Shown: one piece after another, positions 5,283 to 50,633 of the stretch
How the letters are laid out: every line of letters starts with the position of its first letter
How positions within the stretch are numbered: position 1 is the stretch's first letter
Assembly (NCBI GenBank): GCA_009729775.1
Contig: GCA_009729775.1_4081.1
Length of the DNA: 64,000 nucleotides
Reading direction: 5' to 3' (one strand)
DNA from: Escherichia coli
Lineage (GTDB): Bacteria > Pseudomonadota > Gammaproteobacteria > Enterobacterales > Enterobacteriaceae
Made by a program: the position numbers and the translations under genes
Notes under the pieces: model-generated
What the model saw: the letters and a program-made list of their open reading frames with translations, nothing else
What the model was told of the DNA's origin: nothing
Database searches by the model: none

Positions 5283-5316
5283 TTTAATACTCTCCATGTA
5301 TATTGGTACATTAACT

Positions 5317-5325
5317 ATTATATCA
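5317..5325 (-). promoter_or_regulatory. sigma70-like extended -10 promoter (TGATATAAT)
   Basis: Minus-strand TGnTATAAT located between terminator 5358-5379 and start 5282. Confidence 0.4.
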
Positions 5326-5357
5326 TATTTTTATAAGTTGTCCCACTTATAAAAGAA

Positions 5358-5379
5358 GAGAACGGAAAATTCCGTTCTC
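5358..5379 (-). terminator. rho-independent terminator after VWA gene
   Basis: Stem GAGAACGG/CCGTTCTC with 6-nt loop, followed on minus strand by TTCTTTTAT; immediately downstream of stop 5392. Confidence 0.6.
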
Positions 5380-5391
5380 ATTATTTAGTAC

Positions 5392-17026: not shown

Positions 17027-19690
17027 TTATTGAGTTTTTTCGATACGGATTGGTACGTAAATGAAGTTAATACTCTTAGTTGGTTGGATTGCAATATCCA
17101 TCCAAAGTTCATTACGGTCAATACGCTCTGCGGTATTGTTACTTTCATCACAAACTACTGCGAAGTTATAAAGACCCTGTTGTTGAACAATTTCAGCCAA
17201 GAAACTATTAACTACACCACTAAATTCCTGACGAGTACTTGGAGTATTCAAACGGAATAGGAATGGTTCGGAAATAATTTCTAGTTGACGACGAATATAA
17301 ACAACTAAACGAGCAACGTTAACACGACTTAGTGCAGAAGTTTGATTAGCAGATAGAGTTTTATCTCCATAAACAAGCAAACCACGGTTAGGACGCATTG
17401 CAATTGGGTTAATGTTGTTAGTATACATAACGTCACGTTGACCTTGGTTATATACTACTGGTTGATATTCACCTTCGCTGTTGATAAAACCAGTACTTGC
17501 AGCGTTTGTTACAACACCACGAGTTGTACCAGCAGGTGGATACCATACATAACTAACACTATCGCTATATGCATATGTACGCATTGCAATAGTACTACCA
17601 GGAACTGCAACCTCTTCACCATCAACGTTAGTACTTAGACACCAACCCATATACTGAGCAGCATAATCATAAGCAGTTGTACGACCAACTGAACCGTTAC
17701 TTGGTGCATTGTTAGCATTAGTAGCCCATTGTTGTACAGCACTACCGTTTCCGGTTGGATTCAAACGTGCTGGAACGTCAGTAACAATAAATGCAGTTTC
17801 TTTACGATCAGTGTTTAAAGTTACACATTCATCAAGTGTTTCAACATAACCAGGTACACAAATTAGGTTAAAATCAATAAATTCAGAACGAATGTCATCA
17901 TTACCAATAATAACAGCAGCTAGTGCTTCAACTACTAGTTGACGTTGTGCAGCACGACCAAATAGGCCAGCACCATCAAGACTTACACCACTAACAACTT
18001 CCCATTGACCATTAACCATTTTCTTAACAACACCTTCAGTGTTACCTAGGTCAACAGCAAGCATACCATTTTGATACAATGCCGCAGCAGGAACTTGGCT
18101 TGGGAAATTAAAGTCTTGGAAAATCATACCATTTAGTGTACTTTGGTCAGTACTGTCAAGTTTAACCCATTCACCATCAACGTTACGATAGAAATCATAA
18201 CCATCAATGCCTTGAGACAAAGGACAAACCCAAATTAAACGGTCAGCCGCTGGTTCATCAACTTGTACATATTTGTTTTCTTCTTGTACTAGATCCCATT
18301 CATCATTAGCAACATCAGCAACATACATAGTTACAGTTAGATTATCGGAGTTCCCGAAATCATACCAGAGAGTTCCTTCTTTTGCTACACTACGTGGTAC
18401 TGAATAACTAACACGGAAGTTATTAACGTTAATTAGAGAGTAGTTGTTACTATCTACTGTTAGTTTTTGTAGTTCAGATTCAGCAAAAATATCATCACCA
18501 CTTTGTGTGATTTTGAAACTGTAACCTTTTGTATTGGAAACAACTAAACCACCATTAGTTTCACGTTTAAATTTAAAACCATCGTTAATAATTTCAGCAT
18601 TTGCATTTAGATTATTGATGATAGTTTGGGTATTAATAACACCGCCTTGTGGAACTGCTAGTACTTTAACTGATTTATTCAAATAAACAAAAGTCATATA
18701 ACTATCAGCACCTGCTTGTTCAATAATAGTTTCACCAAGTGGCAAAGCAGGAGCACTAATTGTTGTTAGTTTTGCACTTTGAATATAGAAAGAGAAACTC
18801 TTACTATCTTCATCAAAACGAGATGCGATATAACTATTGTTTAGTACACCACTTTTCGCTTCAATTTCTTGGAATGAATTACCAGTATATGCTGGTACAA
18901 TATTCCAAACTTGAGTTAGGGATGCATAACGTTTAATAACAAAACGAGTACCAAAATAGTTTGAACCATTTTGGGTGTAACCATCACGAATCCAAATGTT
19001 ACCTTTTTCTACAGTTGAGCCAACTGGAACTTTGTTAATTGGTGATAGGTAAGTTTCCATTTGCACTAGCCCAGAAGCAGAACGTTTATACATTAGCATC
19101 TGACCATTGCTTGGTTTGTAACGTAGAACTAAATCATCAACATTTAAACCTACTAGACTTACATCTTCAACTTCTTCAGCACTTACAATAGTTACTGGCT
19201 TAAGTTGCCAATCATAAAAACTGCTTGGACTATCTTTCTTCGCTACATACGCTTCTACTTGTGATTGTGCGGTATCAAACCACAAAGTACCATTGGATAC
19301 TGGGCCAGTTGGTGCTTCAGCACTTGGTGCTAGTTGTGCTAGATCGATATCAGCACGAATTACATATGCACGGTTAGTAATGCCTAGATAAGAATATACT
19401 GCATGTAGGCCATATTCGTTTAGTTCATCACCTTGAACAACAGAACCGTTATTCATTTGAAAAATTGGTGTACCATAGGTATCAAGTGAACTTTTTTGTG
19501 ATGTTAGAAGCTGTAGTTTTCCAGCGTTTGCTTTAGTAGTTCCCGCAGCTATTGCACTGCTTCCTGGGACAAGTTTGTCTTCAGCAGTAGCGATTACAAA
19601 TAGTGGTACAGTGCCAGGAGCAGCAGCGGTACTCATACTTTCATCAGTTACTGAAATGGAAACGCCAGGTGAGAGTAGATCTCCTGCCAT
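17027..19690 (-). CDS. tail sheath protein (T4 gp18 family)
   Basis: 887 aa; N-terminal LLSPG motif and C-terminal block VVCDESNNTAERIDRNE...IQPTKSINFI match the T4 gp18 signature as recalled; GGAGG SD. Confidence 0.93.
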   Translation of the reverse strand: MAGDLLSPGVSISVTDESMSTAAAPGTVPLFVIATAEDKLVPGSSAIAAGTTKANAGKLQLLTSQKSSLDTYGTPIFQMNNGSVVQGDELNEYGLHAVYSYLGITNRAYVIRADIDLAQLAPSAEAPTGPVSNGTLWFDTAQSQVEAYVAKKDSPSSFYDWQLKPVTIVSAEEVEDVSLVGLNVDDLVLRYKPSNGQMLMYKRSASGLVQMETYLSPINKVPVGSTVEKGNIWIRDGYTQNGSNYFGTRFVIKRYASLTQVWNIVPAYTGNSFQEIEAKSGVLNNSYIASRFDEDSKSFSFYIQSAKLTTISAPALPLGETIIEQAGADSYMTFVYLNKSVKVLAVPQGGVINTQTIINNLNANAEIINDGFKFKRETNGGLVVSNTKGYSFKITQSGDDIFAESELQKLTVDSNNYSLINVNNFRVSYSVPRSVAKEGTLWYDFGNSDNLTVTMYVADVANDEWDLVQEENKYVQVDEPAADRLIWVCPLSQGIDGYDFYRNVDGEWVKLDSTDQSTLNGMIFQDFNFPSQVPAAALYQNGMLAVDLGNTEGVVKKMVNGQWEVVSGVSLDGAGLFGRAAQRQLVVEALAAVIIGNDDIRSEFIDFNLICVPGYVETLDECVTLNTDRKETAFIVTDVPARLNPTGNGSAVQQWATNANNAPSNGSVGRTTAYDYAAQYMGWCLSTNVDGEEVAVPGSTIAMRTYAYSDSVSYVWYPPAGTTRGVVTNAASTGFINSEGEYQPVVYNQGQRDVMYTNNINPIAMRPNRGLLVYGDKTLSANQTSALSRVNVARLVVYIRRQLEIISEPFLFRLNTPSTRQEFSGVVNSFLAEIVQQQGLYNFAVVCDESNNTAERIDRNELWMDIAIQPTKSINFIYVPIRIEKTQ

Positions 19691-19740
19691 ATTAAATCCT
19701 CCAAAAATAATTGGTTATTCGAAATATATTCGTATAGTCT

Positions 19741-19748
19741 TATTTATT
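19741..19748 (-). promoter_or_regulatory. late-promoter-like AATAAATA element
   Basis: Minus-strand AATAAATA about 51 nt upstream of sheath ATG 19690. Confidence 0.35.
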
Positions 19749-19784
19749 GAAGGATTTAATTGTCCAGTCCTTATTGTTTATAAT

Positions 19785-20411
19785 TTATGTATTAGAATAA
19801 ATAATGTCCATTGCTTTTTTATGTAAATCATCAATAGTACTGTTATTCTGTACAATTATATCAGGATTGTTTATTCCAATCCAAGCCCACTCAGATTCGT
19901 GTACTGATTCTAGTTCAACTGGTTTAATATTAATATCCCCTTTATTATAAGAGGCAGCCAAACCATACCAATGTGGTAGAACACGTTGAACTTCAATAAT
20001 AGTCCCATTATTCGATCTAATCATTTTTAATTCATTTGGAAAACGGCAATCAGTGATGATAATATTTCCATCTATGTCTTGCATTGATTTTTCTAAACTG
20101 AATACCCAAATATCATTATGAAAATACTTACGCAAAATATTAGTACCATAATTCTGCAATACCCATCGAGGGGATACATCATTACGACCTAACTTATCAC
20201 ACCAGTACTGATCCGGTTCTTCACGAATCTTACGACTTTCCTTAGTTGACCCCTCAAGCATTTCACGGTCCCATCCAAAGATGGCAGCAACTGAATCTTT
20301 TAGATTGGTTGCGAATGACATTCGTGTGTAACCATTATTAATAAAAGATTCACCAAATGTATCTTTACCACTTCCAATAGTTCCGTTAATTGCAATTATT
20401 TGTCTTCCCAT
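19785..20411 (-). CDS. deoxynucleoside monophosphate kinase-like P-loop kinase
   Basis: 208 aa; P-loop INGTIGSGKDT at N-terminus, resembling T4 gene 1 dNMP kinase. Confidence 0.75.
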   Translation of the reverse strand: MGRQIIAINGTIGSGKDTFGESFINNGYTRMSFATNLKDSVAAIFGWDREMLEGSTKESRKIREEPDQYWCDKLGRNDVSPRWVLQNYGTNILRKYFHNDIWVFSLEKSMQDIDGNIIITDCRFPNELKMIRSNNGTIIEVQRVLPHWYGLAASYNKGDINIKPVELESVHESEWAWIGINNPDIIVQNNSTIDDLHKKAMDIIYSNT

Positions 20412-20429
20412 TATACTACTCCATGTATT

Positions 20430-20699
20430 TTATATAATTTCTATTAAATCCTTTCCTACTAAACTTTCAAGTAATCCAAGAATTGACTCATTACCATAAT
20501 ATATAGAAACATAAGTAATAAAAAATGTTTCCCCATCATCATCACGATATATACTCGCCCATGCATTTATTCGATCTCTACCGATAACATCAATGATTGA
20601 ATCTTTGATAAATTTCCAGTACTTTTCAGTTGATTCATAATCAAGCGTTGGTCTACCACAACGATATCTGTTATACGTTACATTTATGTTATTATTCAT
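20430..20699 (-). CDS. hypothetical protein (89 aa)
   Basis: ORF in track. Confidence 0.4.
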   Translation of the reverse strand: MNNNINVTYNRYRCGRPTLDYESTEKYWKFIKDSIIDVIGRDRINAWASIYRDDDGETFFITYVSIYYGNESILGLLESLVGKDLIEII

Positions 20700-20775
20700 G
20701 ACAAGTTCCTTTAGATTAATATTATCATTATATCACATAATATGAAAAAAGACTCCATATAGGAGTCCTTTTAAT

Positions 20776-21567
20776 TTAACCAATAATCATACCGAGTGGT
20801 TCAGCACCATCTTGATAACGTTTCAAACGCTCTTTAAGCTGTTCTTGAAGCTGTAAACCTTCATTGCGTAAGGTATCACCATCCATAGAAAACGTTCCCT
20901 GTGGTCCAGGAAGCGATGCAAATTTAGCACGGTTACGACCCAACATAATCATTGCTTCGGATAAAGCCCAATCACGCAACCAAGGATAACTTTGCTGCCT
21001 TTGGAACAACAATGGTTCAGGAATATTATGATAGACGTGTAATAGTACTTCTTCAGTACCACGAATATCACGATCTATAATTAATTTTTTGGTCATTGGG
21101 TTAAATTGAAATATAATATCACGACCAAACATACGACCTACCAGTTCTTGGAACTGAAAACTAAAATCATATGTAGTTAGATCATATCCACCAGCATTTC
21201 GTGCTGAAGTCAATAAGTAAGTGTTGGTGAATGCTAGAGAGAACGGGTCTACTGAGTTCCCACTACCAGAACTTAAGTAACCATTACCATAACGATAAAT
21301 CTTTTTAACAATTTCAACTTCAGTTGGTAGCATATATACAGATTGTGAATCATAAAATTTCATATTTAAAAATGCTTCTTCTTTAGAAGCAGAACTCCAC
21401 GCTCTGTAATTCGATACCGCATTATCAATTGCAATTTCTAATTGACCATCAGTAATTTCTACCTCAACGGCCCCAGCACCCAACATTTGAGTGATAACAT
21501 CTTTCAGTTTTTCACGATGGTCAAAGTTAGGAGCAGCAGGGTTTCCACCCATATAATCGTAAGACAT
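20776..21567 (-). CDS. putative late-expressed virion protein (263 aa)
   Basis: Track ORF 20776..21582; start at second Met 21567 preferred (GAGGTG SD 7 nt upstream); late-promoter motif upstream. Confidence 0.55.
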   Translation of the reverse strand: MSYDYMGGNPAAPNFDHREKLKDVITQMLGAGAVEVEITDGQLEIAIDNAVSNYRAWSSASKEEAFLNMKFYDSQSVYMLPTEVEIVKKIYRYGNGYLSSGSGNSVDPFSLAFTNTYLLTSARNAGGYDLTTYDFSFQFQELVGRMFGRDIIFQFNPMTKKLIIDRDIRGTEEVLLHVYHNIPEPLLFQRQQSYPWLRDWALSEAMIMLGRNRAKFASLPGPQGTFSMDGDTLRNEGLQLQEQLKERLKRYQDGAEPLGMIIG

Positions 21568-21572
21568 AAAAA

Positions 21573-21612
21573 AGCACCTCATTAATGTTTATATACATTA
21601 TTTAGAGGTGCT
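21573..21612 (-). promoter_or_regulatory. SD-sequestering stem-loop containing late-promoter-like CTAAATA
   Basis: 8-bp stem AGCACCTC/GAGGTGCT; 3' arm contains the SD; CTAAATA (21599-21605) sits at start of loop; T-run follows. Confidence 0.45.
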
Positions 21613-21617
21613 AATAG

Positions 21618-21836
21618 TTATTTTGAATTATACAAGCAGTACAGGTATACCAATGGAGTAAAATGTTCGGAATCTATTATATATATTAACTGAGTAACAT
21701 ATATTCCATATAGATCTCGTGATTTATCTCTGTACATTAACAATGATTTATTTAAGTAAGGATCAACCCAGTACTTAATATCATTGTACTTCAACGTGTT
21801 GTTACGGTAACCTGATAGTTTTGAATTTTTATTCAA
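21618..21836 (-). CDS. hypothetical small protein (72 aa)
   Basis: ORF in track; overlaps upstream gene stop. Confidence 0.3.
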   Translation of the reverse strand: MNKNSKLSGYRNNTLKYNDIKYWVDPYLNKSLLMYRDKSRDLYGIYVTQLIYIIDSEHFTPLVYLYCLYNSK

Positions 21837-22206
21837 TTTTCTTACAATTACTCAGTAAGTGAATGATATCATCAGCAGTGAATGGTCCCAATACCAGAAC
21901 TTCTTCACCATTACCGAAAATGCTCAATGGCACTGATTGTTGACCAGCTAGATATTCAATTTGTTCCAGTTCGAAAATGTCATCAGCAGCATATACTACC
22001 TGCTCCATTTCATTATCTTTAATCCATGACTGCCAATGTTCTTTAAACTTCTTAGCTTCGTATTCTTGAACATAGTTAGGTGATTCAGGGTTGTATTGAT
22101 GTAACATAGTCATCCCAGCCATTACTAATTCTTTAGGGGATGGTGTAGAATCTTTCAGTACTACGATAGCTTGGATAGTTTTTACTTTAACGTCATTAGC
22201 AGCCAT
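21829..22206 (-). CDS. hypothetical protein (125 aa)
   Basis: ORF in track. Confidence 0.5.
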   Translation of the reverse strand: MAANDVKVKTIQAIVVLKDSTPSPKELVMAGMTMLHQYNPESPNYVQEYEAKKFKEHWQSWIKDNEMEQVVYAADDIFELEQIEYLAGQQSVPLSIFGNGEEVLVLGPFTADDIIHLLSNCKKIE

Positions 22207-23023: not shown

Positions 23024-23071
23024 TATATTCTCCGAAAAGAAAGGACTCTTTTACAGAGTCCTTATTTTAAA

Positions 23072-24254: not shown

Positions 24255-24362
24255 GATAAAATATTATACCACAACTATAACGCATATCTTATCTCTTTGT
24301 CATCAATCGATGTTCAGATACTAATAATTATATCAGTTATTGGTTTTTTGTCCCACTATTTT

Positions 24363-32850: not shown

Positions 32851-33463
32851 TTAGAAATTCACCAATTTTGGTAGTTGATGCTTTAACATTGAATTCAGAA
32901 TCAGGAAAATCTTTAGAAAATGATTCATTTTGTTCTTGTGAAAGTTCTTTTTTCGGTGGAAATAACATTTTGGCTAAATTTTTACCACATTCAATTGCTT
33001 CATCATATGACATATTTTCCCATGTTTCATGCCAAGTATTAGGATCATATTCTGTCAGTACTGAAATGAAATCAATATCATCAGATGTATAACAAACAGC
33101 ATGTTGATTAGAGAATTGTGTTGATTGATTTTTACCTAATAAAACAATTGGCTTTTCATAAGGAATGTTAAATACCAACCCATATTCTAAGCTAAGAACA
33201 GTTTGAATATGTGAACCCTCCAATTTTGGAGTAATAGTACCATCCTTAAAGAAAATTTGCACATGACCCAAGAGGGGGGTTTCGTATGGTGTAAGTACAT
33301 TTTCAGAAACTGATGTAGGTTTTACCGTTGTGAAAATACCAGATGGTGTAACCATTAATTTATTATCAAAATTCTGATAATGCAAGTCACTCTCTGCATC
33401 ATAATGATAAATTTCTAGATTTGGTTGAGATAGTAGTAATTTTGCTAACTCATGCGATTTCAT
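32831..33463 (-). CDS. hypothetical protein (210 aa), paralog of 31877..32461
   Basis: Paralog relationship as above. Confidence 0.5.
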   Translation of the reverse strand: MKSHELAKLLLSQPNLEIYHYDAESDLHYQNFDNKLMVTPSGIFTTVKPTSVSENVLTPYETPLLGHVQIFFKDGTITPKLEGSHIQTVLSLEYGLVFNIPYEKPIVLLGKNQSTQFSNQHAVCYTSDDIDFISVLTEYDPNTWHETWENMSYDEAIECGKNLAKMLFPPKKELSQEQNESFSKDFPDSEFNVKASTTKIGEFLNANQKD

Positions 33464-34809: not shown

Positions 34810-35103
34810 GCTATCCTTGAACTCCCTTAGCAAATCTGGTAAGGTGCGAACCTTATACATCTATCTAGGAACTCTCTGTATGCTTATCGGAGTTCTTTAT
34901 ACAGCCGTGTCGCCGTGATTCGTGGTCTTACATCGTGTTTGTTTAAATGCCAGTACTCTAACAGGTTTCTTCTGCTGTTCGCTACAACGGTAAAGCTCAT
35001 CTATCCTTTACATTTTCAAGAGAAGTAGGTTCTCAGTGTCCATTTTTCAATGTCCGTTGTCATTTTCTATATACATTATATCATTGGAACATATAATGTC
35101 CCA

Positions 35104-50625: not shown

Positions 50626-50633
50626 TATTTATA
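50626..50633 (-). promoter_or_regulatory. T4-type late promoter TATAAATA
   Basis: Exact TATAAATA on minus strand 35 nt upstream of ATG 50591, directly after nrdG terminator. Confidence 0.5.

Follow-up and report, generated by a model that had tools for sequence, protein, structure and literature searches.

A conserved stem-loop with an embedded late-promoter motif is predicted to lock translation of the neck protein gene in a 121Q-like jumbo phage

The neck protein gene of a 121Q-like jumbo phage probably carries a translational lock of the kind described for T4 gene e, through which only late transcripts would be translated. Its Shine-Dalgarno sequence (SD) is paired in a stem-loop with an upstream copy of the anti-SD, and a putative late-promoter box lies where the loop opens. 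This interpretation had been proposed in an initial annotation of the DNA, and it is supported here by statistical and comparative evidence that is entirely computational. At the sequence level, the arguments for it are the conservation of the helix, the late box, the presence of a late sigma gene, the shift in SD accessibility between long and short RNAs, and the recurrence of the arrangement at other genes.

Results

The neck gene and its neighborhood

The window (the whole stretch of DNA analyzed, 64,000 nucleotides) derives from an Escherichia phage 121Q-like Asteriusvirus, and the 5-kb stretch surrounding the neck hairpin is 99.7% identical to 121Q. PBECO4, G17, slurp01, and others are also close to this phage; they are Asteriusvirus members, Rak2-like jumbo myoviruses of ~350 kb. 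Two genes frame the element:

20776..21567, minus strand: neck protein gene (head-tail adaptor Ad2, T4 gp13-like), assigned from phrog_211 (E 2.4e-41), the annotations of 121Q, G17, and fEgEco12, and an N-terminus conserved from residue 1-3
21618..21836, minus strand: upstream small ORF (121Q gene 547), taken from the ORF list and annotated only in 121Q; its stop codon (21618-21620) lies 5 nt before the 5' arm of the hairpin

Upstream of the neck gene, the same strand encodes early-type genes (tRNA nucleotidyltransferase, nudix, glutaredoxin, a macro-domain protein, and small ORFs), while a small ORF, a dNMP kinase gene, and then the tail sheath gene follow downstream. ORF 547 is probably translated weakly, as it starts with TTG and has no evident SD. 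It is probably a real gene, since its differences from fEgEco12 in the last ~20 codons, read from the sequences, are mostly synonymous. No similarity was found between ORF 547 and the small ORF at the same position in Hallingskeid.

The neck gene starts at the ATG at 21567, because the neck proteins of relatives (60-73% identity) align from residue 1-3 of the product that begins there. The G17, fEgEco12, and A4 records use this same ATG. The 121Q RefSeq start of gene 548 is 15 nt too far upstream (ATG 21582), inside the hairpin and with no SD. This candidate was rejected: it is absent in A4, Munch, and GAP32, and the homologs align from the downstream start. The hairpin itself also favors ATG 21567 over the RefSeq start, in line with the three related phage records.

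The SD of the neck gene is enclosed in a stem-loop

The element reads as follows on the minus strand:

21605..21612, minus strand: 5' arm AGCACCTC, from the sequence and from the MFE and centroid structures; it holds CACCTC and pairs with the SD
21583..21600, minus strand: inner 6-bp stem-loop, from the fold, made of TAATGT (21600-21595), the apical loop ATATAA, and ACATTA (21588-21583)
21573..21580, minus strand: 3' arm GAGGTGCT, from the sequence; the SD GAGGTG is at 21580-21575
21568..21573, minus strand: run of six T (U-tract, SD-AUG spacer), from the sequence; it gives a terminator-like look in this phage only

Direct reading confirmed the SD-sequestering stem-loop of the initial annotation (AGCACCTC at 21612-21605 against GAGGTGCT at 21580-21573), and its 3' arm is indeed the SD of the gene at 20776..21567, whose ATG occupies 21567-21565. 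GAGGTG is a good SD, 7 nt 5' of the ATG. The 3' end of E. coli 16S rRNA, CACCUC, is complementary to GAGGTG, and the 5' arm therefore holds a literal copy of the anti-SD. The loop was given as 24 nt, and there are 24 nt between the arms (21604-21581), a region that is itself structured by the inner 6-bp stem. One detail had to be adjusted: five T rather than six separate the 3' arm from the ATG, as the run of six counts the last base of the arm. The loop is opened by TAAATA, the C of CTAAATA (21605) being the last base of the arm.

The whole element folds at -17 kcal/mol in RNAfold, compared with -6.4 +/- 2.2 kcal/mol in 200 dinucleotide shuffles (z = -4.92), and none of the shuffles folded as well (0/200). 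A scan of 19400-22000 with Rfam 15 gave only sub-threshold matches at chance level, none of them at the gathering score.

The loop opens on a putative late-promoter box

The motif in the loop is the following:

21599..21605, minus strand: CTAAATA, a gp55-type late-promoter box, from the enrichment of [AC]TAAATA before gene starts, the invariance of TAAATA in the alignment, and the late consensus of Aeh1

In 114 kb of 121Q, 25 of the 46 [AC]TAAATA copies are situated 25-80 nt upstream of a start on the same strand, compared with 1.5 expected (p ~1e-25). The distances from box to ATG cluster at 33-43 nt, and that of the neck gene (38 nt in 121Q) is typical. In 121Q, boxes of this type stand 33-57 nt before the start codons of late genes, among them those for the major capsid, scaffold, protease, tail tube, sheath, and baseplate hub, and they also precede portal-region, endonuclease VII, and spanin genes; a few copies are intragenic or in odd contexts. 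Within the window, the coding strand carries 10 of the 11 CTAAATA copies, and seven of these 10 are intergenic, although intergenic DNA makes up just 6.7% of the window.

A sigma factor that could recognize this box is encoded elsewhere in 121Q, outside the window. The product of gene 591 is a gp55-like late sigma, with matches to phrog_234 ("late sigma transcription factor", E 8.4e-18) and phrog_12791 (E 2.7e-154), and the gene adjoins homologs of gp47 and gp46. In T4 the late sigma gene likewise stands beside gp47/gp46.

The T4-like phage Aeh1 has a published gp55-type late consensus, CTAAATA, with the box starting at -12, while the T4 late box TATAAATA spans -13 to -6 (PMC1524935). For the related jumbo phages CBB and GAP32, ATAAATA has been put forward as the late motif, alongside a gp55-like sigma; a point against the lock is that homologs of gp33 and gp45 were not found by the CBB authors (PMC5259590), although a later survey reported gp33 orthologs in this phage group. 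The placed enrichment before late genes, the Aeh1 consensus, and the gp55-like sigma gene thus all speak for the suggestion that CTAAATA is a late-promoter motif.

The exact T4 consensus was also considered as the box of this phage and was rejected, as TATAAATA occurs once in the window compared with 11.3 +/- 3.6 expected (~11-fold depletion). Such a depletion suggests selection against stray late boxes. The sole copy (50626-50633, minus strand) is preceded by a terminator and has gene 499 (898 aa) downstream of it. Another oddly placed motif is the CTAAATA at 5388-5382 (minus strand) upstream of gene 565: it points straight into a terminator-like hairpin (GAGAACGGAATTTTCCGTTCTC followed by a T-run), after which comes a TGATATAAT promoter (all within 5298-5391).

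The predicted late RNA would leave the SD accessible

The box predicts where late transcription would begin:

21592..21594, minus strand: predicted late transcription start, placed from T4/Aeh1 late-promoter geometry by taking the final A of the box (21599) as position -6

This start (~21593) falls within the apical loop, past both 5' strands. According to partition function calculations, opening the SD-AUG region costs 14.3 kcal/mol in an RNA that begins at 21680 and 3.1-3.6 kcal/mol in RNAs that begin at 21590-21596. When the 121 annotated genes in 114 kb of 121Q are ranked by SD occlusion, the neck gene comes first, its SD having a probability of being unpaired of 0.001 (median 0.42), and the tail sheath gene comes second. 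The neck arrangement exceeds chance. Late genes situated within purely late clusters (capsid, scaffold, portal) have no comparable SD occlusion. In these models, both halves of the earlier proposal hold up: RNA initiated upstream would fold and hide the SD, as indicated by the near-zero probability of an unpaired SD and the high opening cost, and RNA starting inside the loop would free it, as indicated by the fall in that cost.

The mechanism that we propose is as follows. Transcripts from upstream early or middle units on the same strand would carry both arms, and the 5' arm, an anti-SD mimic directly before the late box, would pair with the SD and block ribosome initiation. In this phage, the U-run may additionally stop part of these upstream transcripts. 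Late in infection, RNA polymerase with the gp55-like sigma would recognize CTAAATA and start ~6 nt downstream of the box, at ~21593; the resulting mRNA would not contain the 5' arm, its SD would be open, and it would be translated. The late start site, the early read-through, and the effect on translation are all points that we infer from the features above.

The helix and the box are conserved across genera

We compared the upstream regions of neck genes in 20 distinct sequences, drawn from 12 phage records and 8 distinct IMG/VR contigs. The records were those of A4, fEgEco12, ph0011, RaK2, K64-1, Munch, PHA46, EJP2, GAP32, CBB, Hallingskeid, Serratia BF, XbC2, fHe-Yen9-04, XaC1, and pEa_SNUABM_50, some of which are identical over the region. 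Together with the IMG/VR contigs, they cover Asteriusvirus, Alcyoneusvirus, Mimasvirus, Eneladusvirus, and the Munch-like and XaC1-like groups. Querying IMG/VR with the neck protein alone returned only 121Q itself, and a 12-protein alignment returned 19 loci.

All 20 sequences share one design, in which CCNC abuts (TA)TAAATA and is followed by a spacer of 24-32 nt, GNGG, and 5-10 nt to the ATG. The helix shows a compensatory change (CCTC/GAGG versus CCCC/GGGG), its core pair being U-A in 7 cases, C-G in the other 13, and never mismatched (n = 20), and the flanking or outer pairs swap between A-U and U-A and between C-G, U-A, and A-U. RNAalifold, applied to a MAFFT alignment of 12 sequences, independently recovered the helix, with double (compensatory) changes in 4 of its 8 pairs. 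The covariation score was 0.264, compared with 0.140 in shuffled alignments (0/500) and at most 0.138 in slid controls. The hairpin is kept in A4, although A4 and 121Q are unrelated in sequence immediately before the 5' arm. In Mimasvirus and Eneladusvirus, the box lies within the 5' strand (CCCCTAAATATG / CATGTTTAGGGG), while in Asteriusvirus it opens the loop; the predicted start falls in the loop in all of them.

More distant neck homologs set a boundary. No SD-sequestering helix was found in PA5oct or Atu_ph07, and in Vibrio phage 2.275.O the helix is reduced to a weak form of 7 bp (the folded region reaches -10.4 kcal/mol) and the upstream gene is divergently oriented. We accordingly restrict the claim to relatives whose neck proteins are at least ~60% identical.

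TAAATA is invariant in the alignment, while neighboring unpaired positions vary, and this observation bears on whether the motif is a promoter at all. If CTAAATA were no promoter here, the hairpin would be part of every neck mRNA and would tune translation down or stabilize the message. Such a role would agree with the [AC]TAAATA copies that are intragenic or oddly placed, for example the one at 5382-5388 directly before a terminator-like hairpin. A constitutive structure in the 5' untranslated region is nevertheless unlikely, because a virion protein gene would be almost shut off at an opening cost of 14 kcal/mol; moreover, it would not account for a box that stays invariant across genera amid variable positions, nor for a box-to-ATG distance that fits the late-gene distribution. 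We therefore consider this explanation highly improbable.

The U-run is less constant than the stem. The latter was kept in all sequences, whereas RaK2, K64-1, and Hallingskeid have no U-run and EJP2 has just 3 U. This matters for a second explanation, in which the hairpin is a Rho-independent terminator that ends the unit of genes 544-547 and overlaps the neck SD only incidentally, through genome compaction. The stem of 8 bp with 5 G-C pairs, directly followed by six U (a feature of this phage and its close relatives only), looks like a terminator at the end of an upstream coding unit, and the order hairpin, U-run, SD, and ATG is common in the intergenic regions of this phage. Indeed, a compact layout of terminator hairpin, U-run, SD, and ATG with a near-zero spacer recurs at the minus-strand starts at 33463, 30499, 27006, 23023, and 35858, among others. 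However, these ordinary terminators have the SD after the U-run and not within the stem, and their loops are 4-6 nt long, whereas the neck arms are separated by 24 nt of structured loop with a promoter box in it. The SD helix and the late box are found in 20/20 sequences, including those in which the U-run is missing. The hairpin is among neither the ARNOLD terminators of G17 nor the annotated terminators of Munch, and it was not called by our consensus scan, which required a loop of 3-8 nt. We consider it unlikely that the element is simply a terminator. We note that the hairpin and U6 could still terminate most upstream transcripts in this phage, in which case SD occlusion would be partly redundant. 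Some termination is plausible and would act in the same direction as the lock, as a possible add-on; it is not a conserved function, because the U-run after the stem is not conserved.

Upstream transcription

A translational lock presupposes RNA that arrives from upstream, and the following elements may shape it:

24263..24335, minus strand: two extended -10 promoters (TGGTATAAT at 24263-24271 and TGATATAAT at 24327-24335) upstream of the nudix gene, from a motif scan
23041..23063, minus strand: terminator-like hairpin between the nudix-gene promoters and genes 544-547, from the consensus scan and the G17 annotation
20751..20767, minus strand: terminator-like hairpin closing the neck transcription unit, an ARNOLD terminator in G17; the consensus scan lists the same stem on the plus strand
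20727..20735, minus strand: extended -10 promoter TGATATAAT for genes 549-550 (dNMP kinase), from the motif scan and the upstream sequence of gene 549

The two promoters at 24263-24335 are candidate sources of early transcripts toward the neck gene, and the hairpin at 23041-23063, which counts against the lock, would have to be leaky for such RNA to reach the neck hairpin. No promoter was recognized for genes 544-547 themselves, and the "TGAAACG" -35 motif of CBB/GAP32, considered as a middle promoter for these genes, has no occurrence within the window. Transcripts from the promoter at 20727-20735 are predicted to continue into the sheath gene, with no terminator between this promoter and the sheath start at 19690.

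The extended -10 motif TGnTATAAT occurs 18 times in the window, compared with 7.9 expected, a count reached in 0/100 shuffles. The copies are mainly on the coding strand and often directly follow a terminator hairpin; examples are 20727-20735, 24263-24271, 24327-24335, and 5317-5325, all on the minus strand. They are probably host-sigma70 early promoters. The PA5oct transcriptome paper describes sigma70-like promoters only.

The arrangement recurs at the tail sheath gene and at gene 49

The scan that ranked the neck SD also brought out the tail sheath gene (17027-19690, minus strand), which has the same succession of anti-SD, late box, loop, SD, and ATG:

19747..19760, minus strand: 5' arm ATTAAATCCTTCAA, ending in the late box, from the same scan as for the neck gene
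19741..19747, minus strand: late box ATAAATA, from the motif
19691..19704, minus strand: 3' arm TTGGAGGATTTAAT with the SD GGAGG and the ATG (19690) directly after it; probability of being unpaired 0.001

Opening the sheath SD-AUG region costs 19.5 kcal/mol, compared with 7.5 kcal/mol in the shorter RNA, and the arrangement is kept in 9 relatives across genera.

A third instance was found at 121Q gene 49 (KTSC domain; ~35018-35078 of locus L045), formed by AAAAACTCCAAGAT pairing with ATCTTGGAGTTTTT. Its loop contains ATAAATA and its 3' arm TGGAGT, a U-run and the ATG come next, and the probability of an unpaired SD is again 0.001. Gene 49 heads a structural operon (genes 50-51) behind the IF3 and ClpS genes; like the neck gene, both it and the sheath gene come after early-type genes on the same strand. 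There are thus at least three instances (neck, sheath, and gene 49) in the 164 kb of 121Q that were scanned, which are the parts of the genome outside 50-218 kb. This recurrence at the tail sheath and at gene 49 therefore supports, on computational grounds, the reading of the neck hairpin as a T4 gene e-type arrangement.

The sheath gene also helps in weighing translational coupling, in which the neck SD would stay closed until a ribosome finishing ORF 547 melts the 5' arm, so that synthesis would follow upstream translation and not promoter choice. The distances at the neck gene would allow this: the ORF 547 stop is 5 nt before the arm, and the upstream gene ends ~1-10 nt from it in RaK2, GAP32, CBB, Munch, and EJP2. 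However, the sheath 5' arm begins ~25 nt after the upstream stop, beyond the reach of a terminating ribosome, and yet has the same design. Coupling also leaves unexplained an invariant late box that always abuts the anti-SD; in addition, ORF 547 is a poor candidate driver given its probable weak translation, and the small ORFs that lie upstream vary from genus to genus and are unrelated. It is quite improbable that coupling explains the element. A ribosome terminating at the ORF 547 stop could nevertheless briefly melt the arm and permit some translation, and the late-only lock that we favor could to this extent be leaky.

Discussion

Locks with a promoter inside a hairpin have been described for T4 e, soc, 49, I-TevI, I-TevII, I-TevIII, and segB, and for Aeh1 mobE; in the case of gene e, the long transcripts are translated ~100-fold less well (PMC3014915, PMC2988022). 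The neck gene resembles the T4 e, soc, 49, and I-TevI cases in that the SD is paired, by computation here, in RNA initiated upstream (PMC3014915, PMC2988022). As in the T4 e group, the 5' strand includes or adjoins a gp55-type late box, so that the predicted late RNA would not contain that strand, and a late gene stands downstream of earlier genes on the same strand. The differences concern the phage, the targets, the box, and the extent of conservation. The phage is a Rak2-like jumbo phage and not a member of the Tevenvirinae. The targets are virion genes (the gp13-like neck gene and the gp18-like sheath gene), whereas those in T4 are lysis, decoration, endonuclease, and homing genes. The box is [AC]TAAATA, compared with TATAAATA in T4. 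Finally, similar e leaders have been described only in closely related phages (PMC3014915), whereas the neck helix is kept, with compensatory changes, across several genera. Aeh1 mobE shares the late-box variant CTAAATA (PMC1524935) and a hairpin over the ribosome-binding site, and is grouped with the T4 cases (PMC2988022); unlike the neck gene, it is a homing-endonuclease gene embedded among nrd genes.

Searches of the literature on Rak2-like phages (121Q, PBECO4, phAPEC6, fEgEco12, and RaK2) turned up no analysis of promoters or hairpins other than the ATAAATA motif of CBB/GAP32. Judged from its sequence features, the arrangement is a known mechanism in a new phage group and on new target genes, well conserved and recurrent, and it reveals no new mechanism. 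Cross-genus compensatory changes provide unusually good comparative support for a mechanism that has so far been known mainly from T4 and its close relatives.

The unit of anti-SD, late box, loop, and SD may even be a reusable cassette and a general organizing principle of Rak2-like jumbo phages, a tentative idea to which we would give slightly less than an even chance; two of the three instances, neck and sheath, are conserved across genera. With such a cassette, virion genes could be interspersed among early and replication genes of one strand and would need no tight terminators, since they would stay translationally silent on every non-late transcript. The principle of T4 gene e would then be older and more widely used than is known from T4 itself, and would act on core structural genes. 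A lock of the kind proposed for the neck gene would, in addition, account for late virion genes placed immediately after early genes of one strand. For the 350-kb phages of this poorly understood group, these results give a concrete regulatory annotation, in which the late-promoter box is pinned down and start sites are predicted.

One further inverted repeat may be mentioned here. Between the divergent 121Q genes 17 and 18 (~14260-14366 of L045), TTCCATAAATA...TATTTATGGAA carry two facing ATAAATA boxes, and the region looks like a pair of divergent late promoters. In addition, gene 17 has a weak SD with which this repeat pairs.
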